A stretch of DNA of 64,000 nt from Naegleria gruberi. Taxonomy: Eukaryota. The DNA is taken from the NCBI GenBank assembly GCA_000004985.1, contig GG738919.1; one strand, written 5' to 3'. Within the stretch, counting starts at the first letter, position 1; each line of letters begins with the position of its first letter. Shown here piece by piece: positions 27,091-60,391 of the stretch. The notes beneath the pieces are model-generated. The model was not told the DNA's origin, made no database searches, and saw nothing but the letters and a program-made list of their open reading frames with translations. The position numbers and the translations under genes were made by a program.

Positions 27091-29955
27091 TCATTGTTGG
27101 AATGAAAGGAAGTTTGTGGTGGAGGTTGGAGTTGAGCTTGGTTGTGGTGCTTCTTTTTCTCTCTTCTTGGACTTAGAAGTTGTACCACTTGAAGATGGTG
27201 TAGAAGTGCCTCTTAGATAAGCATCATTATAAAGAGTCTTGACATCTGGCCTTTTTGACATTTCATGTGTAAGGCAACGTCTGATAAATTCCTTAGCTTC
27301 TTCTGAGACAGCAGGTTTATCAGGAAAACCAACTTGGGTGGCATTTACGATTGTTCCTTCGCTAAGAATTTTTTGTTGTGAAAGGTTGTTTCCAAATGGT
27401 TTTGTACCGTACAACATTTGGAAAAAGATTACACCCGCCGACCAAACATCAACCTTGTTTGAAATTTTAGGTGGTGGACCTTCACCTGATGGGTTATAAA
27501 AACATTCTGGAGGTAAATACCAATATGTTCCTGCACCCTGTGATGTCAACTCTATAGACTCTTCTTCATCCATAATTTTAGAAAGACCAAAATCTGTAAT
27601 CTTAATATTTCCATCCTTATCAAATAAAATGTTAGCAGGTTTCAAATCGTAGTGAATAACTCTTTGCTTTTGTTGGCATAAATAGTTAAGTCCACTAAAT
27701 ATTTGAGAAATGATATTCTTGGCTTCTCTTTCTGGTACTCTTTGGTGCTTTTTAATGTACAAATCCAAATCAGCACCCTCACAATATTCCAATACTGTAA
27801 CAAAAGTGTTATTGTCAAAGACAAAAGTGTCATACATCTTGATAAGCTTTTCATGATTAATGCTTTGATTAATTTGACATTCTCGCAACACGTGTTTGAT
27901 ATAATTCTCCTTTCGGTGCTCTTTCCAATTTGGATTCAGTTGATGTATTTTACATGCCACAACTTTAAAGTCTGTGAGATCATAGGCCTTGTAGACTTCA
28001 CTAAAGCCTCCTTTACCAAGCATTTTCATAAGGAAGTATTCATGATGATTACTTGGTTGTGGTTGTTGACCATTAATTTGAGGTGTTCCAGGACCATCTG
28101 GTGTGGTTGGAATATATTTTTGGTGTCCAATGATTGGATAATTCTTAAACATTGACTTTTCTTGATCTCTAATACGTTTGATTTCTCTGATCTGTATACT
28201 CTTTTCAATCAAGAGGTTCTCTTGTTCTGCAATATTTTGAGTTTCTTCCTTCTTGAGATGTATAAGTTTTAACTTGACTGTTTCCTCTTGCTCATTTAGG
28301 TCGTGCAATTGTTCTTCTAATTTTCTTATAAATTCGGCATCGTTTGTAGTAATTTGTTCCTTCTTCAATTGTTGTCTTTGTTTTTGAATATTCTTCTTTT
28401 GCTTTTCCAATTTGTCTTTTTCTGTCGTTATTCTATTTTCATTTTCTTTCAATTGTTGGAACAGTGTACCATCTTGCCAAACTTCATAAACGTCCAATCC
28501 TTTTTGATATGTAATAGTACCTATTGTTATTGACTTTTCATTAACCTTTTTCTTATCCTCAATTCTTTCTCTTTCAGCCCTTTCTCTTAAAAATTGGACT
28601 GCAATTTCTCTGAATCTCTTATTACGTTCGTTGTTTTTAATATCATAGTCATGGATTGCATTCTTCATTTGATTGATTTCACTCTCATAACCCTTTGTCT
28701 TGGATTCAGAATTTTCAAGCGATTTGTCTTTTTGTTTCAATTGCTCTTTAACATGTTCGAGTTCTAGTTGTAATTTGGCAATCTGTTGTTGATAAGCTTC
28801 AATGTTACTTTGAACGCCTGTATTATTTATGGCACTGGAACCCATACTAGAATTGGAATTGTAAGACATCATAAAACTGTTACTATTATTGCTAGCGTCA
28901 ACATATAAACTATTACTGTTTTGATTAGAGGAAGAAGATGCCATATTGGATTGACTCTTCTTTGAAGTGCTAGCTTGAAGACTTTGAAACATTTGAGGAA
29001 GTGTCTTTTGCTTCTTGTTTGAAGGCTCCACAAGTTCCTCACCCTCAATACTTAGAGAGTTTTCTTGTTTGTTACAATTTAAAGTAGTATTATTGCTGTT
29101 AGGAGGTGCGAGGTAAATTACAGGAGATGTTTGAGGTAGTGATTGAGGTTGGTTGGATTGATAAGTAGTACTGTTTTCAGTAATGCTCGATGAAACAGAT
29201 GAAGGAATAGTAATTTGATTATTGTTGTTGTTGTTGTTCGTACTGGTGTTGATAGTATTGTTTGAGTACTTGTCACCAGAGTTTTGTCCACTAATAATAT
29301 TAGAAGCATTATTATTGGAGGATCCAGCATTGTTTGTTGAAGAGGAAACTCCAGAAGATGAAGCTTGTTGAGCGGTAGATACAGGCTCACCATCGTCTTT
29401 CCTCATTCTCATATATCTGCTCTTGATTTGTTCCTTTGTTCTTTCGATACATGCATACTTTGCGACACCATCCCAATCAATGTTATTGTCCTTCTTATGT
29501 TTTGCAATTCCTTCTTTAATCTTTTTATCTTCTTCTGGGGTAAATCTTCTTCTCTTCTTTGCCGCAGCAGCAGCTGTTGAAAGATGAGCAGCAGCAGGAT
29601 TTGAAGTAGATGATGATCCTGTACTACTACCTGGAGCACCATTACCAGAACTTGATTTGTGGAGGTTGAAACTGCCTTGATTACCACTACCCATATTAAA
29701 ACTTTGGTGGTGGTCCATATTATTCACTCCATACATATTGTCATCTTCTTCTACAAGATGATCATCATTATCTCTCATCATTGCATTATTTACAAAGGTC
29801 CTTTGTAGGCCTGGTTGATATTCAGAAGACTCTTCACTGTTTACGCTTTCTTCCATGTGTTCTTCAGATTCGTCATTAGAGAGTGATACTGTTGTGCCAA
29901 ATCCCTGCGGAGAAGTTGGTTTAGAGTTGTTAGACTCTCCCGCTGTATGTTGCAT
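27091..29955 (-). CDS. TLK: Tousled-like Ser/Thr protein kinase with N-terminal Myb/SANT-like region and central coiled coil
   Basis: 954-aa single ORF with an ATG start. The C-terminal kinase domain carries TLK-specific motifs (GKGGFSEVYKAYDL, HYDLKPANILF, ITDFGLSKIMDEE, GAGTYWYLPPECF, PPKISNKVDVWSAGVIFFQMLYGTKPFG). Myb/SANT-like RRRFTPEEDKKIKEGIAKH..IDWDGVAKY..RTKEQIKSRYMRMRK at about 29397-29559. Confidence 0.85.
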   Translation of the reverse strand: MQHTAGESNNSKPTSPQGFGTTVSLSNDESEEHMEESVNSEESSEYQPGLQRTFVNNAMMRDNDDHLVEEDDNMYGVNNMDHHQSFNMGSGNQGSFNLHKSSSGNGAPGSSTGSSSTSNPAAAHLSTAAAAAKKRRRFTPEEDKKIKEGIAKHKKDNNIDWDGVAKYACIERTKEQIKSRYMRMRKDDGEPVSTAQQASSSGVSSSTNNAGSSNNNASNIISGQNSGDKYSNNTINTSTNNNNNNNQITIPSSVSSSITENSTTYQSNQPQSLPQTSPVIYLAPPNSNNTTLNCNKQENSLSIEGEELVEPSNKKQKTLPQMFQSLQASTSKKSQSNMASSSSNQNSNSLYVDASNNSNSFMMSYNSNSSMGSSAINNTGVQSNIEAYQQQIAKLQLELEHVKEQLKQKDKSLENSESKTKGYESEINQMKNAIHDYDIKNNERNKRFREIAVQFLRERAERERIEDKKKVNEKSITIGTITYQKGLDVYEVWQDGTLFQQLKENENRITTEKDKLEKQKKNIQKQRQQLKKEQITTNDAEFIRKLEEQLHDLNEQEETVKLKLIHLKKEETQNIAEQENLLIEKSIQIREIKRIRDQEKSMFKNYPIIGHQKYIPTTPDGPGTPQINGQQPQPSNHHEYFLMKMLGKGGFSEVYKAYDLTDFKVVACKIHQLNPNWKEHRKENYIKHVLRECQINQSINHEKLIKMYDTFVFDNNTFVTVLEYCEGADLDLYIKKHQRVPEREAKNIISQIFSGLNYLCQQKQRVIHYDLKPANILFDKDGNIKITDFGLSKIMDEEESIELTSQGAGTYWYLPPECFYNPSGEGPPPKISNKVDVWSAGVIFFQMLYGTKPFGNNLSQQKILSEGTIVNATQVGFPDKPAVSEEAKEFIRRCLTHEMSKRPDVKTLYNDAYLRGTSTPSSSGTTSKSKKREKEAPQPSSTPTSTTNFLSFQQ

Positions 29956-39667: not shown

Positions 39668-39919
39668 AAAGAAGACCTTTTATTCCGATTATTAAAATTC
39701 AACATTTGATCAATTTATTGTTCATTTCCAAACCTACCATCCTGTTTGTATTTCCTCAGTTATTAATTATCCAAATTTACAGGCAAACCTGAATTGTATT
39801 TTTTTATTTTTAAAAACCAACTTTCCCATACAACCAAGTGATTTCCGTAGTGTACTAATTTTTGGCGCCAATCATACTATCCCTTTCCCTTTTATGAAAT
39901 ATTTTTTACTGATAATGTA

Positions 39920-40000
39920 GCAGACTTGGCCGAGTGGTTAAGGCGACAGACTTGAAATCTGTTGGGGAAACCTTCGTAGGTTCGAATCCTGCAGTCTGCG
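39920..40000 (+). tRNA. tRNA-Ser (anticodon UGA)
   Basis: Acceptor stem GCAGACT/AGTCTGC. D-arm GCCGAGTGGTTAAGGC. Anticodon loop CTTGAAA. Long variable arm. T-arm GTAGGTTCGAATCCTGC. Discriminator G. Confidence 0.9.
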
Positions 40001-40007
40001 AATGAAC

Positions 40008-40012
40008 TTTTT
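40008..40012 (+). terminator. Pol III T-run terminator after tRNA-Ser
   Basis: TTTTT eight nt downstream of the tRNA 3' end. Confidence 0.5.
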
Positions 40013-40321
40013 GATTTGAAACAAAAAAAAAGATACTTCTTGTTAAAAGGCAAGAAGATAGTGTTGTGTATAATTTTTGTGATGTGTGTTTTTTAAGCAT
40101 TTTGAAATGTTTTTGCTTGGAATCTCAATACGATTCTTTGAGCGCACCTAAAAAGCGCTTTTGAAACCGGACAATGAAAACTTGGACAAGAACTATTTAT
40201 CGCCATCAAAATGACATTTTCAAAAAAAATCAAAAGAAAGAGGTTCTCTACCCAGACTATTCGTTTATCAATATAATTCTTTGATTAGTTTGATTTCCCT
40301 AAACTTGCAACCGATACAAAC

Positions 40322-43300
40322 ATGTCTAGCCATCTATCAGATGGACACGATCACTATAATTCTGATTGCAATCAACCTTTGGAATCACATCAACAAAATC
40401 AACAACAATTAGATGATGATTCCAAACAAGACAATAATCTTCAAAAAACAACAATACCAACAACAACAACTACTGTTTTGGATCATCATTCATTATCAGA
40501 AAATCACATTGCACTATTAAATAATCATCATTCTCATCATCATCACATCATCCAAGAAGAATCATTGTATATAGATGGAGAGCAATTTGATGATGGTGAT
40601 GATTATGTGGTCAAGCAGGGTGATAGACAGTTGGTTGAGAGTGCACCTAGTAGTGTGGAGGAGATTCATGGTGGTGTTCAGGAGGAATCAATATCGTTGT
40701 TATCGAAAATGTATTGGAAAGTGAAGGATAAAATTGTGGACCTGATGTGCTATGTGATTAAAAAGAAACCACTTGGTGATGATTTTGAATTGGAGGAAAA
40801 GGAGCAAGAATTAAAAGAAGAAACTCAACAGGAAGTGGAACCAGTTGAAAAATCCAATTTTGCCTCAGAAGACGAAACTGAACGAAAGTTTGAAAAAATT
40901 TATATTAACAATCGAGAAGAAAATAGAAAATGCAGAAAACCCTTTCCCAAAAACTCTGTCACAACCACCAAATATTCAATACTGACCTTTATTCCAAAAA
41001 ATCTATTCGAACAATTCAGAAAGGCAATCAATGTTTATTTACTATTAACTGTTATTGCAGTTTTAATTCCAGATCTATCACCCATGTTTCCTCCAGCTGC
41101 TGTATTACCCATTACAATCATTGTCCTTGTCCAGATGGCCAAAGATGGATTCGAGGATTTTCAAAGATATCGTCAGGATCGAAAGGCAAACAATGAGAAA
41201 TGTCGAGTGATTAGAGATGGAATCTTACAGGAAATTCAAGTGAAAAATATAGAGATTGGTGATGTGGTTTCGATAAAGAAAGATGAGGTTTTCCCAGCTG
41301 ATTTGTTGTGTATACATTCGTCGAGAGAGGATGAGTTGTGTTATATTGAAACTGCAAATTTGGATGGAGAAACTAATCTAAAGAGTAGAAGACCTATTAA
41401 GGGATCTTCTAAAGTATTTCATCATGATGTTGCGGAGAATAATATTGGAGATTTTGCACAATTGAAAGGAAAGGTTCAAGTCGAGATGGCAAATAACAAT
41501 TTGGATGTGTTTGAGGGCATGCTGAAAATGCAAACTCAAGTGATGGGATATGGTGAATTAATCTCAATTAATGAACCACTCACAATGGAAAATCTATTGC
41601 TTAGAGGATGCACTCTGAGAAATACTCAACACATATTTGGAATTGCAATCTATCTCGGCAAGCACACAAAGATTTTTATGAATACGAAGGAGAATAAGGT
41701 GAAGAGAAATGAATTGTGGGTAACTCTGAATAAGATTTTGGTATTCTTGGTTTTATTTCAACAAGTGTTGTGTGCAATAGTTGCTGGACTGCAGGGAAAC
41801 TTTCATGACACATTCGAAAGCGGTGCATTCTATTTGGCTCCTCTTGATGATTCACCAGCTTCGTTTGTTTCTGTCATGTCAACTTGGGTCACTACGTTTA
41901 TATTGTTAAATTACATTGTCAATGAGACAATTATTATTGGATTTGAAGCTGTCAAGACATTCCAATCGTGGGATATTCAATCAGATGCTGAAATGAGATT
42001 TGGTGATATTAAAACTCAGGTCAGAACAGCAAATTTGAATCAAGCACTTTCATCACTTGATTTTATCTTCTCTGACAAGACTGGAACACTAACACAGAAT
42101 GAAATGAAGTATTCAGATTCATGGACAGATGGCATGTATTATTCAGAGAAAAGCAATCCTGGCTCAATGAAAGAGAAACTAGTGCAATATCATCAATTTG
42201 GTAAGATTGACATTGAAAATCAACCTCATCATCATCAACAAACATCTGTACATGGAGCAGAACATCATGCTAGCTGCATTAGAGAGTTTTTAACATGTCT
42301 CACCTTGAATAACAGTGTCATGCCAGAGAAGGATTTACAAAACCCTGAAAGAATTAATTACAATGGACCTTCCTCAGATGAAATTGCACTTTTGGAGGCT
42401 GCTACCAATAATGGATTCAAATTAATTCAGAGAACCAACGAAGGATTAGTAATTGATGAAATGGGAGAAACTAGATTTTATGAAATTATTGCAACCTTTC
42501 CATTTACATCTGATAGAAAAAGAATGACAGTTCTTGTGAAAACTCAAGAAGGAAGATATATTGCCTATGTGAAAGGTGCAGATAACGTCATGCTGAAGAG
42601 ATGTAGAGCTAGAAAGGAATATGTTCATGAATTGAAATCTGCTCTTCTCAATTTTTCAGTTCAGGGCTTGAGAACATTGGTAATTGGTAGGAGGGAGCTC
42701 TCAATGAGTGAATTTGAAACTTGGTTCGATGGTTATAATAAGGCCTCCATGTCAAGTAAGAATAGAGGAAAGATGATTGCTCAGAGTGCAAGTGATCTGG
42801 AAATTGATTTGGAGCTGGTTGGTTGTACAGCCATTGAAGATAAATTACAAGATGATGTGGCCAAGTCAATTGATTATCTTTCCAGAGCTGGTTTGAAGAT
42901 TTGGGTCTTGACAGGTGATAAGACAGAGACAGCAATTAATATTGCCTACTCAACCAATGTATTGGTGAAAGACAAGACCATTGAAATCAGAATCAGAGAT
43001 GCCAACACACATCAACAAGCCAAAAAGAAACTGAAGGAAGCACTAGAATTCTTACAAAACAATTCGAATAAGGGATTTGAATTTGGTCTCATTATCGACT
43101 CCAAATCTCTAGAGTTTATTCTCGACAAGTATGAGAAACGTTTCATTGAACTAGCTCGATATGTCCACTGTGCTGTCTGCTGTCGTTTAAAACCACTCCA
43201 AAAGTCCAGCATTGTAAAACTAATTGAAAGTAAGCTTCACAAGAAGGCCCTCTCCATTGGTGATGGTGTCAATGATGTGGCAATGATCCAAGCAGCATCC

Positions 43301-44185
43301 ATCGGTGTTGGAATTCAAGGAAAGGAAGGATCTCAAGCTTCTCGTTCCTCTGACTTTTCAATTCCTCGTTTTAAAAACCTGGTAAGATTATTGGCCGTTC
43401 ATGGAAGAAATTGCAGTGTGAGAAATGCCGACTTTTTACATTTGAGTTTCTACAAGAATTTTATATTGCTCCTTCCTCAATTTTTCAATATTTTCTATTG
43501 TGGATATTCTGGAACTTTAATATTCGATTCTTGGGAATTAATTGTCTATATTGGAATTTACTTCTTTTTTCAACCGATTGCATTTGGATCGTGTGAAAAG
43601 GATTTACCTGAGGAGGTGATTTTAGAGCATCCAGAACTCTATGATTCACTCAAAAAATCTGGAAATTTATTCAATCTCAGAACATTAATCATGTGGGGAA
43701 TTGCTGCCATCTATCATGCACTTGTCATTTTCTTTGGAATTATTCTGAGTGTGGATGGAGATTTTATGGAGAATGGACCTACTGACCTATATCATTTTGG
43801 TAAAATTATCATGACATGTATGGTTTGTGTGGTCACTTTGATATACATTTTGGAGATTAAAACATTGACAGTTCCAGTTTTAATCTTAATGCCACTTGGT
43901 TTTTTATTTTACTTTGCATTCAATGCTTGTTATTCTCCAATTGCAGATGAATTGGGAGATCCTGAGAGTTTATACATTTATTATGAAACTTTTGTGAGTG
44001 TACAAGCTACCTTGACTACGATTCTAGTAGTTGTAGTTGCAATTTTACCGAATATCATTTGGAAAGCTGCCAAGATTACCTTTTTCCCATCAGAGTCTCA
44101 ACGACTTTTATTGGAATATCTTGAAAAGAAGGAACACCAAACTCAAGAGGAAGCTAATAAGGGAAAGCAACCAAACTCAAAGTAG
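40322..44185 (+). CDS. P4-type ATPase (phospholipid flippase)
   Basis: 1287-aa ORF with an ATG start. P-type motifs DKTGTLTQNEM and GDGVNDVAMIQAASIGVGI. P4-characteristic N-terminal region PKNLFEQFRKAINVYLL. Ten TM helices. His-rich N-terminus. Confidence 0.9.
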   Translation: MSSHLSDGHDHYNSDCNQPLESHQQNQQQLDDDSKQDNNLQKTTIPTTTTTVLDHHSLSENHIALLNNHHSHHHHIIQEESLYIDGEQFDDGDDYVVKQGDRQLVESAPSSVEEIHGGVQEESISLLSKMYWKVKDKIVDLMCYVIKKKPLGDDFELEEKEQELKEETQQEVEPVEKSNFASEDETERKFEKIYINNREENRKCRKPFPKNSVTTTKYSILTFIPKNLFEQFRKAINVYLLLTVIAVLIPDLSPMFPPAAVLPITIIVLVQMAKDGFEDFQRYRQDRKANNEKCRVIRDGILQEIQVKNIEIGDVVSIKKDEVFPADLLCIHSSREDELCYIETANLDGETNLKSRRPIKGSSKVFHHDVAENNIGDFAQLKGKVQVEMANNNLDVFEGMLKMQTQVMGYGELISINEPLTMENLLLRGCTLRNTQHIFGIAIYLGKHTKIFMNTKENKVKRNELWVTLNKILVFLVLFQQVLCAIVAGLQGNFHDTFESGAFYLAPLDDSPASFVSVMSTWVTTFILLNYIVNETIIIGFEAVKTFQSWDIQSDAEMRFGDIKTQVRTANLNQALSSLDFIFSDKTGTLTQNEMKYSDSWTDGMYYSEKSNPGSMKEKLVQYHQFGKIDIENQPHHHQQTSVHGAEHHASCIREFLTCLTLNNSVMPEKDLQNPERINYNGPSSDEIALLEAATNNGFKLIQRTNEGLVIDEMGETRFYEIIATFPFTSDRKRMTVLVKTQEGRYIAYVKGADNVMLKRCRARKEYVHELKSALLNFSVQGLRTLVIGRRELSMSEFETWFDGYNKASMSSKNRGKMIAQSASDLEIDLELVGCTAIEDKLQDDVAKSIDYLSRAGLKIWVLTGDKTETAINIAYSTNVLVKDKTIEIRIRDANTHQQAKKKLKEALEFLQNNSNKGFEFGLIIDSKSLEFILDKYEKRFIELARYVHCAVCCRLKPLQKSSIVKLIESKLHKKALSIGDGVNDVAMIQAASIGVGIQGKEGSQASRSSDFSIPRFKNLVRLLAVHGRNCSVRNADFLHLSFYKNFILLLPQFFNIFYCGYSGTLIFDSWELIVYIGIYFFFQPIAFGSCEKDLPEEVILEHPELYDSLKKSGNLFNLRTLIMWGIAAIYHALVIFFGIILSVDGDFMENGPTDLYHFGKIIMTCMVCVVTLIYILEIKTLTVPVLILMPLGFLFYFAFNACYSPIADELGDPESLYIYYETFVSVQATLTTILVVVVAILPNIIWKAAKITFFPSESQRLLLEYLEKKEHQTQEEANKGKQPNSK

Positions 44186-44307
44186 TACTGAGGAATATTT
44201 TGAATGAATGATATTAAGGACAATTAAAGTTTTGGTTTACGATTTTCAAAGAGAAAGAAATTTCCAATGTCGACTGTTGGGTCGTTGGTCTAGAGGAATG
44301 CAATTTT

Positions 44308-44422
44308 AGAAAAGGTAAAATGATTCTCCCATGCCGGGAATTGAACCCGGACCTCCTGGGTGAAAGCCAGGTATCCTAGCCATTGGACTACACGGGAATC
44401 TTATTCATAATGAAAATATTCC
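44308..44422. repeat. left arm of ~115-bp inverted repeat containing tRNA-Glu plus conserved flanks
   Basis: The reverse complement of this arm matches 47864..47979 nearly base for base. The 72-nt tRNA is identical in both arms. About 20 nt of 3' flank and about 25 nt of 5' flank match with one or two mismatches. Confidence 0.8.
44326..44397 (-). tRNA. tRNA-Glu (anticodon UUC)
   Basis: Minus-strand sequence TCCCGTGTAGTCCAATGGCTAGGATACCTGGCTTTCACCCAGGAGGTCCGGGTTCAATTCCCGGCATGGGAG. Anticodon loop CTTTCAC. Identical to the copy at 47889..47960. Confidence 0.9.
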
Positions 44423-44543
44423 CTTAATGAATTTTAAATAACATGATCCTGTATCTTATTTCCTTTAGCATCAAAAGCTGTTTCTAATTGAAATTCAACT
44501 TACAACATCGAGTACACTATTATTTTGGTGTAATGGTAGTATT

Positions 44544-47500
44544 TTATTTGAGTTTTGAATAAATTTTTTCCAAATACTGTGTTATTTCTCTGAAGGAAGG
44601 CCTCTTACTTGGAATGGAATTCCAACATTGCTTCATCAATTCCACATAATCACTACACACGTTACAAACAGTTTCATGATCTAGAGAATTTTTCTTCTCA
44701 AATGGTTCAATAAACTCTCTCAACCACACCTCCAATTCTTCATTGTTATTCCAGGGAATTTTAGGACGTTCACCCCTCACCACCATCACTGGAACGGATA
44801 ATGCAAGTGAATCTTGATGTGGTGATTGAGAAAATTTGTGAATTTTAGGAGAATTGGAAAAAAATGGTTTCTCCTCAAAGAATAGTTCATACATAATGAT
44901 ACTGTAACTGTACACATCGAGTGCATTTCCAATTTCTTGTCCACTTCCAATTAATTCTGGAGCCATATATAGAATGGTACCTAAATTCATTGTCATTGAG
45001 AAACTTCCACTATTTGAGGTCAACTTGGACAAACCAAAATCACAAATTTTAGGTTTCAAATTGGCGTCCAGCAAAACATTTCCACATTTAAGATCTCTGT
45101 GAATTAAAGATAATGGCTTCAATGAGTGTAAATAGTCCATTCCTTTGGATACTCCCGATAAAATTTCAATCTTTTCCTTTAAATTCAACTTTTTTCGTCC
45201 TGATTTAGAGTTGGCAATTGCAGTTTCCAAACTCCCATTTTCCAAATATTCCACAACCATATATCTTGTATTTGAGCTGATAGATATTCCAAATAATCGA
45301 ACAATAGCTGGATGTCTAAGACTATTCAATAAACTTGCTTCATGCTCAAATTCATCCTCAAGTAATTCATCATCTGTTTTCAAGCTCTTCACAGCAACAT
45401 TAATACCATTCCATTGAGCTAAGTATACACTACCATGACTTCCTTCACCAATTCTCTTGCTTATTTCAATATCTTCAATTGGAATTAACAAATTATTGGA
45501 AGATTTCGTCTGAATATTTGTCAAGAGCGGGGTTGAAATCTCTCCAAATACAAACTTCTTGTCAATAATCTTTTTAGCAATTTGGGATTCACGTTTATCC
45601 TTTTTGTGGAGTCTAAATAATCTTTTTCCAATCTGAGTAGTCAAAAAAGCTCCAAATCCCAATAAGATTAACAGCAATATCACTCCAAATATTGTTGAAA
45701 CAGCAATGGCTGAATAATTCTTGAATTTACAAACTCTACTTGTTGGTAAACCTTCATATCCAAAATCGAATGGGCACTTCTCCACATTAATTCCAATTTC
45801 AAAGTTGTAGAGAAATTCTGATAACGAAACTTGAATATTAAAATTGCTTTCTCCTTCACACCATTCAAATGATAAATTCATAATGGTATTGTTGGCTTCC
45901 TTCTCGTGCATGATAATAATCGAAGATTTTGAATTAATGGAAGAAACAACAGGTAATGCTTGGAGTGATGTAAGAGTATTGTTGAACTCATCAATTATTT
46001 GAATAATTTCTAATGTTATTTGCTGACCTGGATAGAGAGATAGTTTTGGAATTGTATTGCTGGTGGAAGAATAAATGCTTTTAGAATTTGACGTTTTCCA
46101 CAACACTTGTTGGATGTGACTAGAACCACACTGTCCAGATAATGCACCATCAGATGAAACTACACAACTTTTCAAAAATCGATTATCCTGTGGAAAATAT
46201 ATGAAATTCCCTGAATAAGTAGCATCGTTTCCAATATTACTTGTTTGAAAAACTCTAACTTCCCCATAACAAGCACCTCCCTTAACAGCCAAGTTGTACT
46301 CAAAATTAGATCCTGAAAAGTAGAAAAAGCTGTTTGAGGAATAAATGGCACCACCATTTCCACAATCCTTAACACTCAAACATCCTTCAAAGTTTCCAAT
46401 AGCTTGATTGGAAATGAATTTTGAAAATCTATCTGTAATAAAAGACCTTTCAGAATAAATAGCACCTCCATTAGATGCCTTATTATTGATAAATAGACAA
46501 TTAGCAGTTGTAAGTTTTGCTTCATTCAAATAGAGCGCACCTCCTTGATTAGACCAATTGTCTCTAAACGTGCATTCAATGATCCTAATACGTTCACTAT
46601 CAAGTTTCTGTTTTCCATTATTATTAATTGACAGGGCATTTCTATTTCTTTCAAATATACAGCTTTCAATTGATAAATCGTTGACTTGTTGGAATGAGAG
46701 AGGTTCAACATTATCTGAAAAGTTCATAGATTCAAATTTGGCTTGAATATTTCCAATAACTTGAATACTTGAATTATTAGAAAGTGAAATTGCACTCACT
46801 AATATAGATTCGCTTCCAATCCACACATTATTAGTTTGTTCCATTTTACATTCTTTCATAATTATAGCCCTCACAGACATGATAAATAGTGTGGAACCTT
46901 CGAATTGATTTGAAGTAAAAATTATTTGCTCTGATGAGGTGATGGCTATAACGCTTTGTTTGAAAATGCTATCATTCATTCCAAAATCAATAATATTATC
47001 ATTATACACTTTAGATTTTCCTTGAATATTCGAATTTACAATTAATCCATTCTCAATTCTAATCTTTGCTGTTGAAAGTGAGCAATTCAATAATGTTGAA
47101 TTGTGAATAAGCGCTGGATATAAATAACTCCAAAGTGAACATTTATACATTGTCGATTTTTGAATAATTAGTAAATCTGCATAATAGTTAAGCTCTACAT
47201 TTTCCAAAATACAGGAATCGATCATCCAAAGTGGAATTTTAGACGAACTTGCACTATCAATTTTCAAATTAGATAATTTCACATTTGATAATATAAATTG
47301 ATCACATTGTTTCGATAGATAACTAATACTTTCAAGAACATCCCACTCACTTTGTGTAATATAATAGTAGTCCTTTCGGTTCCCAATAATTAATGAATTA
47401 GTTCCATTCTGAATATCTTCCAATAAATAGGACGAAATTGTTAAATTAATTAATTTTCTATTATTATTAATAAATGTTGGCTTTGTCAAATTACTCATCA

Positions 47501-47771
47501 AATAAATTTTAATATTCAATTCATCATCGGAAGAAGTTAAATTATTTGAAAGATAATTTCGAATTTGTTGTAATGAAGAACATGGACTGGAGGGAGATAG
47601 ACAAGGAAGATTCGACTCATTGTTATTTGTATTTTCATTATAGAAGAAGGTTAATTGGAGAGAAAGAGTGAAGGGAAGAATGGATAATAGAAAAAGAAAG
47701 GCAAGATTTGGATTCATTTTTTTAATATTGAAAAAGATGAAGATCCGATAACAATACAGCCCCATCGACAT
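44544..47771 (-). CDS. receptor protein kinase (TKL-type): signal peptide, large ectodomain with parallel beta-helix/PMP-like GGAIY repeats, one TM, cytoplasmic kinase domain
   Basis: 1075-aa single ORF with an ATG start. Ectodomain repeats NGGAIYSERSF, GNGGAIYSSNSF, KGGACYGE. TM helix IAVSTIFGVILLLILLGFGAFLTT. Kinase motifs GEGSHGSVYLAQW, VAVKSLK, HRDLKCGNVLLD, ICDFGLSKL, ILYMAPE. Confidence 0.8.
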   Translation of the reverse strand: MSMGLYCYRIFIFFNIKKMNPNLAFLFLLSILPFTLSLQLTFFYNENTNNNESNLPCLSPSSPCSSLQQIRNYLSNNLTSSDDELNIKIYLMSNLTKPTFINNNRKLINLTISSYLLEDIQNGTNSLIIGNRKDYYYITQSEWDVLESISYLSKQCDQFILSNVKLSNLKIDSASSSKIPLWMIDSCILENVELNYYADLLIIQKSTMYKCSLWSYLYPALIHNSTLLNCSLSTAKIRIENGLIVNSNIQGKSKVYNDNIIDFGMNDSIFKQSVIAITSSEQIIFTSNQFEGSTLFIMSVRAIIMKECKMEQTNNVWIGSESILVSAISLSNNSSIQVIGNIQAKFESMNFSDNVEPLSFQQVNDLSIESCIFERNRNALSINNNGKQKLDSERIRIIECTFRDNWSNQGGALYLNEAKLTTANCLFINNKASNGGAIYSERSFITDRFSKFISNQAIGNFEGCLSVKDCGNGGAIYSSNSFFYFSGSNFEYNLAVKGGACYGEVRVFQTSNIGNDATYSGNFIYFPQDNRFLKSCVVSSDGALSGQCGSSHIQQVLWKTSNSKSIYSSTSNTIPKLSLYPGQQITLEIIQIIDEFNNTLTSLQALPVVSSINSKSSIIIMHEKEANNTIMNLSFEWCEGESNFNIQVSLSEFLYNFEIGINVEKCPFDFGYEGLPTSRVCKFKNYSAIAVSTIFGVILLLILLGFGAFLTTQIGKRLFRLHKKDKRESQIAKKIIDKKFVFGEISTPLLTNIQTKSSNNLLIPIEDIEISKRIGEGSHGSVYLAQWNGINVAVKSLKTDDELLEDEFEHEASLLNSLRHPAIVRLFGISISSNTRYMVVEYLENGSLETAIANSKSGRKKLNLKEKIEILSGVSKGMDYLHSLKPLSLIHRDLKCGNVLLDANLKPKICDFGLSKLTSNSGSFSMTMNLGTILYMAPELIGSGQEIGNALDVYSYSIIMYELFFEEKPFFSNSPKIHKFSQSPHQDSLALSVPVMVVRGERPKIPWNNNEELEVWLREFIEPFEKKNSLDHETVCNVCSDYVELMKQCWNSIPSKRPSFREITQYLEKIYSKLK

Positions 47772-47863
47772 AAGGTAATCAATTTTCCTTGAATATGGTG
47801 AGTGAATTTAAATTCTAGGGTCAATATTCTTGGCTTTGTCATAATGTATGTTGATTCATGGAA

Positions 47864-47979
47864 GGAATATTTTCATAATGAACAAGATTCCCGTGTAGTC
47901 CAATGGCTAGGATACCTGGCTTTCACCCAGGAGGTCCGGGTTCAATTCCCGGCATGGGAGAATCATTTTTACCTTTTCC
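47864..47979. repeat. right arm of ~115-bp inverted repeat (tRNA-Glu plus flanks)
   Basis: See the left arm at 44308..44422. The two arms are in inverted orientation and bracket the receptor-kinase gene. Confidence 0.8.
47889..47960 (+). tRNA. tRNA-Glu (anticodon UUC), second copy
   Basis: Identical 72-nt sequence to the minus-strand copy. Followed by TTTTT at 47966-47970. Confidence 0.9.
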
Positions 47980-48157
47980 AACTAATAATTCTTTCTTTTC
48001 ATAAACTAACTTTAATTGTCCTTATAATATCATTATTGCTTTTTTGATTCAAAAAGATTTTAAAAATTAGTTCTAGGAGAGAACTCTTTGTTCCTGCATA
48101 CACTCGAACTCTAAAAATTACTACTTTTTCATTGCAATAATAAATTCAAAAAGAAAA

Positions 48158-49417
48158 ATGCTTCCAAAATCCAAGTACAGTCCCAACAATTTTCGAAAAT
48201 ATCAAACCACACCCAAGAAACGTAAAACTTCATCCGATTCCAATCTGGCAAATGAAATTGTCGATTTAACTCTCGATGAAAATCATATCATTTCCATTGA
48301 TGATGATGAGGAGGAGCAAATTCATCACTCCGAGAGAGTAAAATGTATTTTAATTGATCATCATCATAACGAGTTTAATGATGAAGAAGAATTTGAACTG
48401 ATGAGTTTATTGATTGGTAAATTGAGAGGAAAGTTTATTCGGTCAGTTTCTCTGGAATTTGATTCGTGCTATCAGTTGAGTGTTAAAGCAATGAAGAAAC
48501 CATTTGATGTAAAGATTTCGTATAATCACAAATTGGTTGTTGTCTCTGATTATAATGCAAATTCATTGTTTCTTTTTGATTTGATAACAAAGAGATATTT
48601 GACGAAACTATATATTAAGAATCCACATTATATTGCCATAGAATCAAATGTGGATTATCGTGAAGGAACTGAAAATGATGCAATTATTGTAACAAGTGCT
48701 AGTAACCATGTTTACAAAATTGACATTAAATTGAGTGTGAAAAATGGAAAGAGTTCAGAAATTTGGAAAGTTGGTGGAACGAAACATTTCAATTCCCCAT
48801 GTGGAGTAGTTGTCTATCATAACAAGGCAATGGATAGAAGAGAATCCCATGAAAATTCATATTTCAGATTAAATCAACAAGAAAGAGATGAAAATCTTGT
48901 AATGGTTTGTGATTTTAATAATAATAGAATTCAAGTGTTGGGTTCAAAGTATGGAAATTTGATTTCTTCAATTACATTGATTCCTGGAATTGGATTACAA
49001 ACTCCGTGGATGATTGATGTGAATTCGTATGGAGATTTGGTTCTTTCTGAATTTTCGAATAGAGTTCAATTGATTAGATATGTTTCGAATGTGTACGATT
49101 ATATGGATATTGCAGAAAGGGAAGAGATGGATTCAGACGGATGGGTTTCTCTTCATCAATTCTCATCTGAATCAAATTCAAGAAATGTCAAGACCAAATG
49201 TTGTGGAATTGTAGTTGACAAGACCACTCAGAATGTAATAATATGTGATAGAGATTCGAATATCATTAGAATATTCAATGTGAATGGAATATTTATCAAG
49301 GAAGTGAGAGGAGTCATTAATAATCCGAGAGGAATCTGCATTGATGAAAGAAGTGGAGAATTACTCATTGTGGATTCGGAAAGAAAATGTGTTAAGGTAT
49401 TTGGACATGTTAATTGA
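48158..49417 (+). CDS. NHL-repeat (six-bladed beta-propeller) protein with basic/acidic N-terminal region
   Basis: ATG start. N-terminus has KKRK and an acidic stretch. C-terminal repeats of NHL type (DFNNNRIQVLG, SEFSNRVQLIR, DRDSNIIRIFNVNG, VDSERKCVKVFG). Confidence 0.6.
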   Translation: MLPKSKYSPNNFRKYQTTPKKRKTSSDSNLANEIVDLTLDENHIISIDDDEEEQIHHSERVKCILIDHHHNEFNDEEEFELMSLLIGKLRGKFIRSVSLEFDSCYQLSVKAMKKPFDVKISYNHKLVVVSDYNANSLFLFDLITKRYLTKLYIKNPHYIAIESNVDYREGTENDAIIVTSASNHVYKIDIKLSVKNGKSSEIWKVGGTKHFNSPCGVVVYHNKAMDRRESHENSYFRLNQQERDENLVMVCDFNNNRIQVLGSKYGNLISSITLIPGIGLQTPWMIDVNSYGDLVLSEFSNRVQLIRYVSNVYDYMDIAEREEMDSDGWVSLHQFSSESNSRNVKTKCCGIVVDKTTQNVIICDRDSNIIRIFNVNGIFIKEVRGVINNPRGICIDERSGELLIVDSERKCVKVFGHVN

Positions 49418-55285: not shown

Positions 55286-57667
55286 TTATTGTAATATTAA
55301 TATAAAATAAATAACAATCATGCCAATTGTCATTGCCATATTTGTAAATCCATTGTAAATACTCAATGCTGATCCAAGAACCATTGAATTGACTCCTCTC
55401 TTTGAGCTAAAAGTTGAAGGTTGAGGTAAAACTCTATCTCCACATCTCTCACCTCCAAATCCACTCTTACATGAACAAGTATTGATGGAAGTGCAATTTC
55501 CATTTCCGGAACATGCTAATGGATCATTGTAAAGAGTTCCAAAACAGAGTGGAAGACAAAAAGTGTTGGTTTCATCGGTGAGAGAGTTGGCTGGACAAGC
55601 TTGTTTGGAAATCTTGAGAATACGATTGGAGAAACCACCTGAAACTAACAAATCTCCTTTTGGAGTAAATGAAAGACCTGTAGCACTCATAAAAATGGTT
55701 GTTGCATCAGAATATGATTCAGGAATGCTACTGTTTTTGCTTCCAAAGATTGTTACCAGAATTCCCTTTGAAGTAATCTTTCGAATATTGTTTCCATCTG
55801 AGAAGAAAACTTCTCCCTCTTTTGAAACAGCAACCGATGAAGGATATCCAATTCCAGTACTTGTAGCAATTCCAAAATCTTCACCAACAGTGCTGTCTCC
55901 ATTACCTGCCACTGTTGTAATATTACCATTCTTAGAGAGCTTTCTAATGAGATAATTATCATAATCAGCAATATACAAATCACCATTTGGAGCCAGTGCG
56001 ATATCTTGTGGACCACTGAACTTTGTCTTTGTTGCCAATCCATCACCATTGAACCCACCATCTTCCAACACTCCAGCAATGATACTCATCACTCCATTTG
56101 TAGAAATCTTTCGAATAACATGACTCGATCTATCAGCCACCAACAACTCACCACTCTCTGTCAAAATTACAGCTTGAGGAGAACCCAAACCACTCACAAC
56201 TGTATCAACAGTTCCATTCGATGCAAAAATCCTTCTAATTGCTCCATTAAACAAATCTGCAATGAAAATATCACCATTTTTGGAACATGCAATTCTGGTT
56301 GGTTCGTTGAACTTGGCCAACTTGGCATCTGATCCATCACCACTATAGCCATGGTCACCTGTGCCGGCGTATTGTGAGATAATACCATTTGGGGAGATTT
56401 TTCTGATTTTGTGATAGGCACTTTCGGCTATGAAAGTTTCGTCTAGAATGTTTGTGCAGGCATGTTTAGGATAGTAGACAAAGGCTTGTTGGCTGTTGTA
56501 GCCATCTCCTGTAAACTTTTTAACATCTCCAGTAAAGTCTGGTTTGAGGGTGAGAGTGATACTATTTCCTTTAGTGTCAACCTTTCGAATATACAAGTTT
56601 CCATTATCTGCAATAAACATTTCGCCCAAGCTTGATAGAGCAACACTGGTTGGAGCAGAAAGAAGGGCTGAAGTTGCAGGAACGTTTTCATCTTCTCTGC
56701 TATAACCACTACTATTTGGGACTCCAGCAACTGTTGAAATAATTCCACTTTTCGAAACCTTTCGAATAAGGGAATTCAAAGTATCAGCAATATAGACCTC
56801 ACCAGTGGATTCATAAAAGAAAACACCATAAGGTGTGTTCAGTAGAGCTTGCTTTGCTTGAGAACCATCTCCTCCATAACCATTTATGGTTCCATTTCCA
56901 GCAAAAGTGGAAATTATTCCATTTGCATCAATCTTTCGAATAACGTGATTCTTTGAATCGGCAATATACAATTCACCAGTTGAACTAATTGACAAACCAA
57001 TTGGACTATTCAATTGTGCTGTTTTGGCATTTCCGCCATCACCAGAAAATCCTTCTTCACCATTTCCAGCTATTGTTGAAATATTACCATTTAGAGAAAT
57101 CTTTCTAATCACATGATTTGATTTATCAGCAATATAAACTTCACCATTCGATGCTACTGCAACACCAGTTGGAGTATTCAATCTTGCACGAGTTGCCAAA
57201 CCATTGTCTCCACTGTAACCCAAGTCACCCTTCATTCCTGCCACAATTGTTTGAATTCCCTTCGAATTTAATCTAACAATGACACCTCCTACTGGATCAC
57301 TAATGAGCAAATCATTGGAATTTGGATAGAGAGCAACACCTCCTGGTTGAAACTCCAAATCCTTCGTTAAAGTTGTAATTCCACTCACAGTATCCAACAT
57401 TCTAATCTTGGTCATGCTATCCTCAGTCATGTAGAGAATATTACTCGAGGCAGAGATGGCAAACATGTTGGGACGAGAGAATACGAAAGAGGATGGTATA
57501 TTACTTCCCTCCTTCTCACCAGCAACCACAACTGAAACATTGTACTTGATAGCTGTCAGTTGTGCATTCACTACTGCACAAAGGAGAAACAAGAGAATCG
57601 CAATATGACAGCAGACTTTGTGAATCTGATTGGTTTGCATGTTTTTTTTTGAAATGTGTCTTTCCAT
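55286..57667 (-). CDS. type-I membrane protein with ~11 tandem NHL repeats, an EGF-like Cys-rich module and C-terminal TM
   Basis: ATG start. Signal peptide. Repeated NHVIRKISxNGxISTIAGNG / GDGGxAxxAxLNxPxGx units. EGF-like CLPLCFGTLYNDPLACSGNGNCTSINTCSCKSGFGGERCG. C-terminal hydrophobic MAMTIGMIVIYFILIL. Confidence 0.7.
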   Translation of the reverse strand: MERHISKKNMQTNQIHKVCCHIAILLFLLCAVVNAQLTAIKYNVSVVVAGEKEGSNIPSSFVFSRPNMFAISASSNILYMTEDSMTKIRMLDTVSGITTLTKDLEFQPGGVALYPNSNDLLISDPVGGVIVRLNSKGIQTIVAGMKGDLGYSGDNGLATRARLNTPTGVAVASNGEVYIADKSNHVIRKISLNGNISTIAGNGEEGFSGDGGNAKTAQLNSPIGLSISSTGELYIADSKNHVIRKIDANGIISTFAGNGTINGYGGDGSQAKQALLNTPYGVFFYESTGEVYIADTLNSLIRKVSKSGIISTVAGVPNSSGYSREDENVPATSALLSAPTSVALSSLGEMFIADNGNLYIRKVDTKGNSITLTLKPDFTGDVKKFTGDGYNSQQAFVYYPKHACTNILDETFIAESAYHKIRKISPNGIISQYAGTGDHGYSGDGSDAKLAKFNEPTRIACSKNGDIFIADLFNGAIRRIFASNGTVDTVVSGLGSPQAVILTESGELLVADRSSHVIRKISTNGVMSIIAGVLEDGGFNGDGLATKTKFSGPQDIALAPNGDLYIADYDNYLIRKLSKNGNITTVAGNGDSTVGEDFGIATSTGIGYPSSVAVSKEGEVFFSDGNNIRKITSKGILVTIFGSKNSSIPESYSDATTIFMSATGLSFTPKGDLLVSGGFSNRILKISKQACPANSLTDETNTFCLPLCFGTLYNDPLACSGNGNCTSINTCSCKSGFGGERCGDRVLPQPSTFSSKRGVNSMVLGSALSIYNGFTNMAMTIGMIVIYFILILQ

Positions 57668-57925: not shown

Positions 57926-60391
57926 ATGAACAAATCTTGTGTAACAGTTGTGCTTTTTTACTGCATCTGTTTATTGGGTTTCTTATTGCATGTTAAAGCA
58001 GAGCAATACGAAACCTCTGAAAATCCAAATTTTTCTATTCGTTACAATCTCACACTTGTTACTGGAAATGGTGATAAGAGAGGAACAGGCGTTCCTTACA
58101 GTATTGTAATGACAAGACCTGTGGGATTGGCATATTCTCAAAAGAGGAACACTATTTATCTTTCTGAAGGTAATTTGATGAGAAAACTTGACTTGACAAC
58201 TGGCATGACTTATATATTTGCAAATGTTGAAAATCCTGGTTTGCTTGCTTTCTCTCCTAATGAAACAACTCTCTACGTATGCTTCCCACTCTCAAATAAG
58301 GTTCAAAGAATGGACTTTCTTCCAAATGGAACCGAAATCTTTTCAGATTTTGCTGGAAATGGAAATTCTGGAAATACAGGTGAAGGTGGCTTGGCTATTA
58401 ATGCTCAATTGAATCAACCAAGTGGTGTAGCAGTTGATTCAAATGGTGATGTTTACATTTCAGATTCTGGAAATGGTTTAATCAGAAAGGTTTCCATCTC
58501 TTCAGGAATAATTACAAAATTTGCTGGAACAAGTCAAGGATTTGCAGGAGATGGTGGTTTGGCAAAGAATGCCAAGTTGAGTAATCCAAGAGGATTGAAT
58601 TTTGGTCCAAATGGTGATTTGTACATTGCAGATTCTGATAATAATGTGGTGAGAAGAATTAATTCGAGTGGAATTATTACAACCATTGCAGGTGATACCA
58701 CATCAGGTTATTCTGGAGATGGAGGTGATGCTAAATTGGCAAAGATGAAAAATCCAATCAATGTTATTGTCTCAAAAACTAATGAAATATTCATTAGTGA
58801 TGCAGATAATAATGTTATTAGAAAGGTTTCCAATGGAAATATTTCAACAATTGCTGGTAATGAATTGGTGGGTTCTGGATTCAGTGGAGATGGAGGAGAT
58901 TCTAAAAACGCATTGATTTCCATGGTACAAGGATTTGTATGGATCAATGATGAGTTGGTATTTGGAGATTTGGTAAATTCTATTAGAAAGATCAGTAAGA
59001 GTGGAATCATTTCATCCCTCACACAAAAACTTCCATTCACTGGTGATGGTGTTAATGTAGATTTGAGTTTTATACTCTATCCTAAAGGTATTTGTGTGAA
59101 TGAGAATACAGGTGATATTATTTTTTCAGAAGCTTATGGAGATACTATTCGAAAGATTGCCAAGAATAGAATAATTACAAAAATAGCAGGTATTGGAAGT
59201 GCCAATAATTCTGCTGGAGTTGAAAATGGGCAAGCGCTCTCTGTTTCTCTTCATATGCCAAGTCTTATTCAATGTCAACCAAATGGTGATGTTTATGTTG
59301 CTGATTATTTCTCCAATCTCATTCGTTTAGTTTCGACCAATGGCAGTATAACGAATGTTGCTGGAACTGGTGTTGGGGGATACAGTGGAGATGGTGGTAA
59401 TGCTAAATTAGCCAAATTGAATGCACCTAATTCAGTCAAAGTTTCTTCCAGTGATGAAATTGTTATTGCAGACACTTCCAATAATGTTATTCGAAAGGTT
59501 TTCAAAAATGGAACAATTATTACAATTGCTGGTACTATTGGAAGTCAGGGATACAGTGGAGACAATGGTCTAGCAATTAGTTCAGTTCTTTCCAGCCCAT
59601 CAGATGTTGCTATTGCACCAAATGGTGAGGTATTCATTGCCGATTGGGGAAACCATGTTATTCGAAAGATTGATACTAAAGGTATCATTACAACAATTGT
59701 AGGCAATGGCACAGAAGGTAATGGTGGTGAGGGATTTAATAGACCTCTAACTGCTCAATTGAAATTTCCAAAATCAATCTCACTTTCGAAAGATGGAGAA
59801 TTGTTCATTTCAGATTACAATGGAATTAAGAAATTAACAGTGAAAGGAACAATTGCTCATATTGCTGGAGTTGGAGATGATAGATATGTTCCTCTAACTC
59901 AAAATTACCTCTCAGATGCCACAACTGCCTCAGTTTTCACAGATCAAATTCACATCATGTCAAATGGTGATTTGATTATTGGCATTGGAAATGGTTATGA
60001 CAATGGCAAGATCTACAAGCTATCCAAACTCACTTGCACCCAACCAAACTATTCTCCAGACAGCACCAACACTTTCTGTCTCCCTTCATGTTTTGGTTTG
60101 ATTGCTGACAGCAACAATATCTGCTCAGGAAATGGTTCATGCATTTCGACCAATACCTGCCAATGCAAGCCAGGATATACTGGAGCCCAATGTCAATCTC
60201 GTATTGAACCAACCATTTCCAAACAACCAGCCTACCCTCTCACAAGTAGCTCCTCAATTCTTCCTCAAAAATCGAAAGGAGTGATTGGAGGAAATTCCAA
60301 TCCACGTGGAGTTGCTTCGAGTGTTTGCGTTGGAATGAAAATTTCTGGAATTTTGTTGATTTTATGGGTCGTTCTGATGTTTTGCTTTTAA
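57926..60391 (+). CDS. paralogous NHL-repeat + EGF-like type-I membrane (or GPI-anchored) protein
   Basis: ATG start. Signal peptide. NHL repeats (NNVIRKVSNGNISTIAG, NHVIRKIDTKGIITTIVG). EGF-like CLPSCFGLIADSNNICSGNGSCISTNTCQCKPGYTGAQCQ. C-terminal hydrophobic ISGILLILWVVLMFCF. Confidence 0.7.
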   Translation: MNKSCVTVVLFYCICLLGFLLHVKAEQYETSENPNFSIRYNLTLVTGNGDKRGTGVPYSIVMTRPVGLAYSQKRNTIYLSEGNLMRKLDLTTGMTYIFANVENPGLLAFSPNETTLYVCFPLSNKVQRMDFLPNGTEIFSDFAGNGNSGNTGEGGLAINAQLNQPSGVAVDSNGDVYISDSGNGLIRKVSISSGIITKFAGTSQGFAGDGGLAKNAKLSNPRGLNFGPNGDLYIADSDNNVVRRINSSGIITTIAGDTTSGYSGDGGDAKLAKMKNPINVIVSKTNEIFISDADNNVIRKVSNGNISTIAGNELVGSGFSGDGGDSKNALISMVQGFVWINDELVFGDLVNSIRKISKSGIISSLTQKLPFTGDGVNVDLSFILYPKGICVNENTGDIIFSEAYGDTIRKIAKNRIITKIAGIGSANNSAGVENGQALSVSLHMPSLIQCQPNGDVYVADYFSNLIRLVSTNGSITNVAGTGVGGYSGDGGNAKLAKLNAPNSVKVSSSDEIVIADTSNNVIRKVFKNGTIITIAGTIGSQGYSGDNGLAISSVLSSPSDVAIAPNGEVFIADWGNHVIRKIDTKGIITTIVGNGTEGNGGEGFNRPLTAQLKFPKSISLSKDGELFISDYNGIKKLTVKGTIAHIAGVGDDRYVPLTQNYLSDATTASVFTDQIHIMSNGDLIIGIGNGYDNGKIYKLSKLTCTQPNYSPDSTNTFCLPSCFGLIADSNNICSGNGSCISTNTCQCKPGYTGAQCQSRIEPTISKQPAYPLTSSSSILPQKSKGVIGGNSNPRGVASSVCVGMKISGILLILWVVLMFCF

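Follow-up and report, generated by a model that had tools for sequence, protein, structure and literature searches.

Our analysis of a 64-kb stretch of the Naegleria gruberi genome (contig GG738919.1 of assembly GCA_000004985.1; the whole stretch of 64,000 nucleotides is referred to as the window) centres on two identical tRNA-Glu(UUC) genes that lie in opposite orientation within an inverted repeat and have a receptor-like kinase gene between them. We propose that this pair probably is an ordinary local inverted tRNA gene duplication at the DNA level, with the kinase gene as a bystander. In such a scenario, a chromosomal segment of ~0.2 kb would have been copied into a neighbouring intergenic spacer in the opposite orientation, and the copied unit would comprise a complete tRNA-Glu(UUC) transcription unit, i.e. 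~35 nt upstream, the 72-nt gene, its terminator and ~75-125 nt beyond. The outcome would be two independent RNA polymerase III (Pol III) genes, both pointing away from a native kinase gene towards which they would have no role, and purifying selection would keep the tRNA body identical as unselected flanks drift.

The presence of two identical tRNA-Glu genes in opposite orientation, which the original prediction had claimed, is borne out by ARAGORN, by Rfam and by full identity (72/72 nt) between the left and the right copy. ARAGORN reports three tRNA genes in the window, one tRNA-Ser(UGA) gene (39920-40000, plus strand) and the two tRNA-Glu(UUC) genes (anticodon TTC), whose bounds it places at about 44325-44398 on the minus strand and 47888-47961 on the plus strand. 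Both Glu copies score 67 bits with Rfam RF00005 (gathering score 29), cover the full model from 1 to 71 and fold into a full cloverleaf. The left 72-nt gene (44326-44397, minus strand) is transcribed leftwards, away from the kinase gene, and the right one (47889-47960, plus strand; 72 nt) rightwards and divergent to it. In the left copy the A box TAGTCCAATGG matches TRGYNNARNGG and the B box GGTTCAATTCC (44337-44347) matches GGTTCRANYCC; the right B box occupies 47939-47949. With three sites in the window against 0.29 expected, each of them inside a tRNA gene, the pattern GGTTCRANYCC leaves no solitary TFIIIC site outside the three tRNA genes. A-box-like patterns, including a site at 44286, number nine in the window against 7.5 expected and are within chance. 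Dictyostelium likewise has a compact AT-rich genome with hundreds of tRNA genes and conservation of the sequence that follows them, and an external B box is part of that downstream sequence; unlike these genes, the N. gruberi tRNA-Glu genes lack an extra downstream B box, a candidate we rejected since the GGTTCRANYCC pattern is absent there.

Both copies are followed by runs of T that resemble Pol III terminators. The 3' trailer of the left gene (44310-44325, minus strand) has two T4 runs (AATCATTTTACCTTTT), at +6 and +13, and that of the right gene (47961-47977, plus strand) has a T5 run at +6 and a T4 run at +14 (AATCATTTTTACCTTTT). Upstream, the same AT-rich motif GGAATATTTT is found at -25 to -16 of both genes (44413-44422, minus strand; 47864-47873, plus strand). 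Cloverleaf, A and B boxes and T-run terminator, as expected of functional nuclear tRNA genes, are therefore found in either copy, and because these features and the upstream AT-rich motif are intact in both, both copies probably are expressed and add to tRNA-Glu(UUC) gene dosage. The pre-tRNA leaders differ at -6 and -12 and the trailers by T4 versus T5, differences that would let pre-tRNA sequencing tell the transcription of the two copies apart.

As for the repeat itself, a repeat finder returned an inverted repeat at 44310-44432 and 47854-47976, 123 nt long and 93% complementary, whose arms are 3421 nt apart, so that the arm coordinates originally given (44308-44422 and 47864-47979) are right to within ~10 nt and the arms indeed are near-identical on alignment. 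It is the strongest inverted repeat in the window, and all remaining ones stem solely from two diverging NHL-repeat paralogues at 55.3-60.4 kb. The perfect tract runs over 86 nt and consists of the 72-nt tRNA gene plus 5 and 9 adjoining nt. That near-identical flank adjoins the tRNA genes was thus correctly seen; its extent, put at 20-25 nt on each side, was not, since gapped local alignment extends the arms to 230 nt on the left (44203-44432, minus strand; about -35 to about +123 of the tRNA) and 184 nt on the right (47854-48037, plus strand; -35 to about +77), with gaps and indels.

The two sides of the tRNA gene differ in how homology ends. On the 5' side it covers 35 nt exactly (44398-44432, minus strand, and 47854-47888, plus strand; 30/35 identical) and drops abruptly to background beyond. 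3' of the gene, the adjoining 18 nt agree bar one T indel (T4 versus T5), and then the left arm holds ~40-47 nt, at about 44259-44309 on the minus strand, that have no counterpart in the right arm and may reflect either an insertion into the left arm or a deletion from the right one. This left-arm-only stretch contains a GTCGAC palindrome and two CCAAC words; that it might harbour a tRNA remnant, as the word TGGTCTAGAGG could hint, was rejected, for Rfam finds nothing there at E <= 10. Past it, a distal 3' block aligns with a few small indels and includes a perfect 17-mer, AACTTTAATTGTCCTTA, which occurs in the window at these two sites only (48008-48024, plus strand; 44215-44231, minus strand). 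Because the distal 3' blocks have in common this 17-mer, which is located about 48-95 nt downstream and past the T-run terminators, the duplicated unit appears to have run well beyond the Pol III terminator.

The significance of this flanking homology was assessed by removing the tRNA genes and comparing local alignment scores with those of 1000 shuffles. The upstream flanks score 45 (null 17.8 +/- 3.1) and the downstream flanks 52 (null 20.8 +/- 3.5), values reached by 0/1000 shuffles in either case, and the flanks of the tRNA-Ser gene aligned with the Glu flanks score 17-22, at the null mean. Homology therefore exceeds the transcript on both sides and beyond chance, as would be the case for duplication at the DNA level. 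Since it covers 35 nt upstream as well as sequence past the terminators, the template of the copy seems to have been DNA, not a Pol III transcript. A retrocopy or a tRNA-derived short interspersed element (SINE) was rejected on this ground and for want of an A-rich tail or direct repeats at the ends. An assembly artefact is unlikely, the arms differing by substitutions and indels and their contexts being unique.

Divergence between the flanks also bears on age. There are 5/35 substitutions upstream, ~2 in ~50 aligned nt downstream and about six indels, the largest of ~40-47 nt. So of the claim that conserved flanks imply a recent duplication, the duplication stands, with highly significant flank homology on both sides, and the qualifier does not: flank substitutions (7-14%) and indels argue against a very recent event, and an old local duplication is the simplest reading. 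Occasional gene conversion between the copies is possible yet needless for explaining their identity, because 14 extra identical nt have a probability of ~0.12 at 14% divergence.

The arms fill most of two short intergenic spacers of 358 and 386 nt. The left spacer extends from the stop of a flippase gene (44185) to that of the kinase gene (44544), and the left arm begins ~17 nt after the flippase stop; the right spacer extends from the kinase ATG (47771) to the ATG of an NHL-repeat gene (48158), and the right arm ends ~120 nt before the latter. Both tRNA genes point outwards with their 5' ends towards the kinase gene, the right 5' end being 117 nt from the kinase ATG and the left tRNA start 146 nt beyond the kinase stop. 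The arms do flank the kinase gene, as had been noted, though not 'exactly', for they end 111 nt and 82 nt from its open reading frame (ORF). Since in gene-dense DNA short intergenic spacers are the sole free places in which tRNA genes can sit, such bracketing is what any two neighbouring intergenic tRNA genes would show.

Local duplicates of this kind have precedents in the same genome. According to a survey of tRNA genes (tDNAs) by Bermudez-Santana et al. (2010, PMC2888827), N. gruberi has 924 tDNAs in 41 Mb; 77 adjacent pairs are found within 1 kb where random placement would yield 39 (Additional file 2), and the pairs <1 kb apart that specify the same amino acid number 8 in parallel and 4 in antiparallel orientation against ~1.0 and 1.0 expected. 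Same-amino-acid pairs within 1 kb are hence ~six times commoner than chance, which makes local same-type tRNA duplicates, antiparallel ones included, a documented feature of N. gruberi. Our pair is like the same-isoacceptor pairs of that survey in having two copies of one tRNA close together, and antiparallel pairs do occur among them; unlike these, which are <1 kb apart, it spans 3.5 kb with a coding gene in between and falls outside that count. Moreover, the survey (PMC2888827) did not include an analysis of flank homology, which is what we see for the present pair. For any tDNA, the chance of having a same-amino-acid neighbour within 3.5 kb is ~0.4% by our estimate (924/41 Mb x 3.5 kb x ~1/20), so proximity by chance is unlikely, and the flank homology settles it. 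With tRNA gene duplication being frequent in general (PMC13063481), the pair would be one further example of tRNA family growth by short local DNA duplications and, as such, matters little.

Several points nevertheless weigh against a single local inverted duplication. The two genes may be members of a dispersed unit, the flank comparison having covered the 64-kb window, and it is from intact gene features that we infer expression of both copies. Either arm may be the parent copy, and no junction microhomology or target-site duplication that would name a repair pathway was seen at the arm ends. Finally, three tRNA genes in 8 kb hint at a regional effect that one duplication explains incompletely.

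The kinase gene between the arms (44544-47771, minus strand) is an intact single-exon ORF of 1075 amino acids. Pfam assigns Pkinase (181 bits) and PK_Tyr_Ser-Thr (172 bits) to it as well as a Chlamydia-PMP repeat in its N-terminal part, i.e. in the ectodomain. A hydropathy scan reveals an N-terminal hydrophobic segment (22-44, after a second Met at residue 19), which we read as a signal peptide, and one strong transmembrane segment at about 688-712 (hydrophobic stretch 683-716). The kinase domain (768-1067) has all of the GEGSHG, VAVK, HRD, DFG and APE motifs, and the nearest solved kinase chains (CTR1, ZAK, TAK1, LysM-RLK, CERK1, RAF) all belong to the TKL group. Pfam domains, nearest chains, hydropathy and motifs are thus in agreement with the original prediction of a TKL receptor kinase, and TKL-group receptor-like kinase is a fair name for the predicted product. 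With a GC content at third codon positions (GC3) of 0.264 and a codon-usage distance of 0.055, both inside the range of the neighbouring ORFs, the gene looks native, and foreign origin was rejected on these grounds.

An exhaustive HMMER search found full-length relatives of 1050-1290 amino acids at 33-43% identity, by their names proteins of N. gruberi, N. fowleri and N. lovaniensis; the paralogues on record from N. gruberi number four. Among ~15 billion public proteins none is at least 50% identical to the kinase ORF, exact look-ups were negative and the protein collection has no transcript-derived protein for it on record. Since the collection does include the flippase (XP_002670065.1) and the four paralogues, the kinase ORF appears to be missing from the N. 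gruberi reference proteome, which the 1075-amino-acid protein should join.

Could the arrangement serve the kinase gene after all? One option is that tRNA genes bound by Pol III and TFIIIC act as paired insulators, i.e. as boundaries or as local silencers of RNA polymerase II (Pol II) that isolate the kinase gene. Each arm has a consensus B box, and just 117 nt separate the right tRNA start from the kinase ATG. In fission yeast, tDNAs serve as centromeric barriers in either orientation (PMC2040200), and the mating-type region has inverted repeats with TFIIIC sites as its boundaries on both sides (PMC7474672). Our pair resembles these barriers and the IR-L and IR-R elements (PMC2040200, PMC7474672) in that tRNA genes or B-box sites are part of inverted repeats to either side of a chromosomal domain, and in having Pol III/TFIIIC elements. 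The fission yeast repeats, however, are kilobases long and divide heterochromatin from euchromatin or from centromeric core chromatin, whereas the N. gruberi pair, known from sequence alone, has 0.2-kb arms and one ordinary gene between them in gene-dense DNA. Indeed, on neither side did we find a heterochromatin-like, repeat-rich or transposon-rich domain, the window being uniformly gene-dense, and so the sequence suggests no junction that would need a boundary. Nor is the bracket a family trait, for no tRNA gene is found within 10 kb of the kinase homologues of W. magna (L002), N. lovaniensis (L004) and N. fowleri (L005). In a compact genome that has ~900 tDNAs, chance alone will place tRNA genes next to many others. 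Absence of the kinase from the reference proteome and from transcript-derived proteins would fit low expression, but absence from an annotation is weak evidence on expression. To our minds, paired insulation is therefore improbable, and we see a slim chance that the diverging tRNA-Glu pair would keep a fast-evolving kinase isolated or quiet and so form a single-gene, tDNA-bracketed domain in a heterolobosean. If true, an insulator or silencer pair would also account for the lack of the kinase in the reference gene set.

Recombination between the arms has been put forward as another role, with recurrent inversion of the 3.4-kb kinase segment and both orientations expected in populations or lineages. 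Inversion by this route is physically possible, the inverted arms sharing an 86-nt perfectly identical core, and in yeast, tRNA genes are ~threefold enriched at evolutionary breakpoints (Gordon, Byrne and Wolfe 2009, PMC2675101), with recombination between near-identical tRNA copies as one suggested cause. A precedent is a 24-kb segment of Saccharomyces chromosome XIV (PMC9731477), a natural flip/flop region delimited by an inverted repeat that can recombine. There, however, the repeats are nearly identical 4-kb gene pairs under continual homogenisation, and the segment has been seen in either orientation (PMC9731477), whereas the N. gruberi pair has an 86-nt identity tract with diverged flanks and is known in one orientation; compared to the 4-kb yeast repeats, 86 identical nt within 123 nt at 93% make a poor substrate. 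Identity past the tRNA genes is within chance (14 nt, p ~0.12) and gives no sign of ongoing homogenisation. Inverted repeats do bound the segment as they would in an invertible switch, but the recombination site is not spanned by any promoter or coding part. Inversion would move the gene as a whole, spacers included, and switch nothing: because the segment up to the tRNA genes comprises the ORF in full, with 117 nt on its upstream and 146 nt on its downstream side, the flip would be without obvious effect, and exchange within the identical tRNA core would restore both tRNA genes intact. Moreover, the 24 large ORFs scanned include no recombinase. We thus regard flip-flop inversion, for which the available data provide no evidence, as highly improbable. 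A look through the literature for inversions with tRNA genes in opposite orientation at their ends retrieved no paper with such a phrase. Should either an insulator or an inversion polymorphism prove true, the locus would lend itself as a small and tractable system for studying how tDNAs affect a Pol II neighbour in an early-branching eukaryote.

Alternatives that place the origin of the pair elsewhere fare little better. If many tRNA-Glu(UUC) genes shared their flanks following expansion of a ~0.2-kb unit, two of them might just happen to be 3.5 kb apart. Copying on such a scale is conceivable in that ~900 tDNAs imply many rounds of it, and GGAATATTTT, part of the upstream block, is met again upstream of the tRNA-Ser gene at a nearly equal distance and may be functionally conserved. 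Still, a same-amino-acid neighbour within 3.5 kb is expected by chance in roughly 0.4% of cases, the tRNA-Ser flanks do not align with the Glu flanks bar one AT-rich motif, and proximity together with common, indel-rich distal sequence favours local copying, so we consider a dispersed family unit unlikely. Mobility of the kinase gene itself, whether carried in by a transposon bounded by terminal inverted repeats (TIR) or captured at a fragile tRNA site, is hardly credible. It is true that 34% of yeast gene-gain sites have tRNA genes next to them (PMC2675101), that the relatives of the kinase in the protein collection are distant (33-43% identity) and that, as at yeast breakpoint and gene-gain sites (PMC2675101), tRNA genes adjoin a lineage-restricted, fast-evolving gene here and their near-identical copies are possible recombination substrates. 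Unlike at the yeast sites (PMC2675101), though, no Ty-like elements are found at the N. gruberi pair, and no transposase, integrase or recombinase domains were found in the 24 large ORFs scanned. Neither is there a target-site duplication; the kinase is the sole ORF inside, its codon usage is native and it belongs to an old Naegleria family, and the outer arm ends are not sharp but fade out with indels. A local inverted duplication with a bystander kinase thus accounts best for the arms as we find them.

The AT-rich upstream motif of the Glu genes has a counterpart at the tRNA-Ser(UGA) gene, where GAAATATTTT (39896-39905, plus strand) is found at -24 to -15, and G[GA]AATATTTT is common to all three tRNA genes. 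Besides this motif, the flanks of the tRNA-Ser gene do not align with those of the Glu genes. With two independent examples, the motif is a candidate for a TATA-like Pol III element of Naegleria. As such, the AT-rich motif ~16-25 nt upstream of three tRNA genes would offer a lead to an upstream Pol III promoter element in Heterolobosea.

The three tRNA genes are in three consecutive spacers within 8 kb (39920-47960), and none is found in the other 56 kb of the window. Given a genome average of ~1 tRNA gene per 44 kb, this region may be a loose tRNA-rich neighbourhood. In 120 kb of heterolobosean DNA from five related loci (L001-L005), ARAGORN finds no tRNA gene compared to three in 64 kb of N. 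gruberi; small as this sample is, it fits a much higher tRNA density in N. gruberi. The whole tRNA-Glu and its 36-nt central part gave no matches in metagenome scans.

Throughout the window GC content is about 34%, and long single-exon ORFs are tightly packed. To the left of the pair, the P4-type flippase ORF (40322-44185; 1287 amino acids) matches XP_002670065.1 of Naegleria gruberi NEG-M at 100% identity, and its ~55-63% identical relatives, from N. lovaniensis (L001) and N. fowleri (L003), are non-syntenic, have different downstream genes and no tRNA gene. To the right, a shorter NHL-repeat gene (48158-49417, plus strand) adjoins the pair. Further downstream, two diverging paralogues encode teneurin-like NHL-repeat proteins (55286-57667, minus strand; 57926-60391, plus strand), one of them with an EGF-like domain, and their internal repeats yield the window's other inverted as well as direct repeats. 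Two additional ORFs have unusual or mixed domain content: 27091-29955 (minus strand; 954 amino acids) unusually pairs a protein kinase domain at its C terminus with a Myb-like DNA-binding domain, and 4654-7188 (plus strand; 844 amino acids) joins a CHASE4 sensor domain of bacterial type to an RGS domain, a eukaryotic G-protein regulator.

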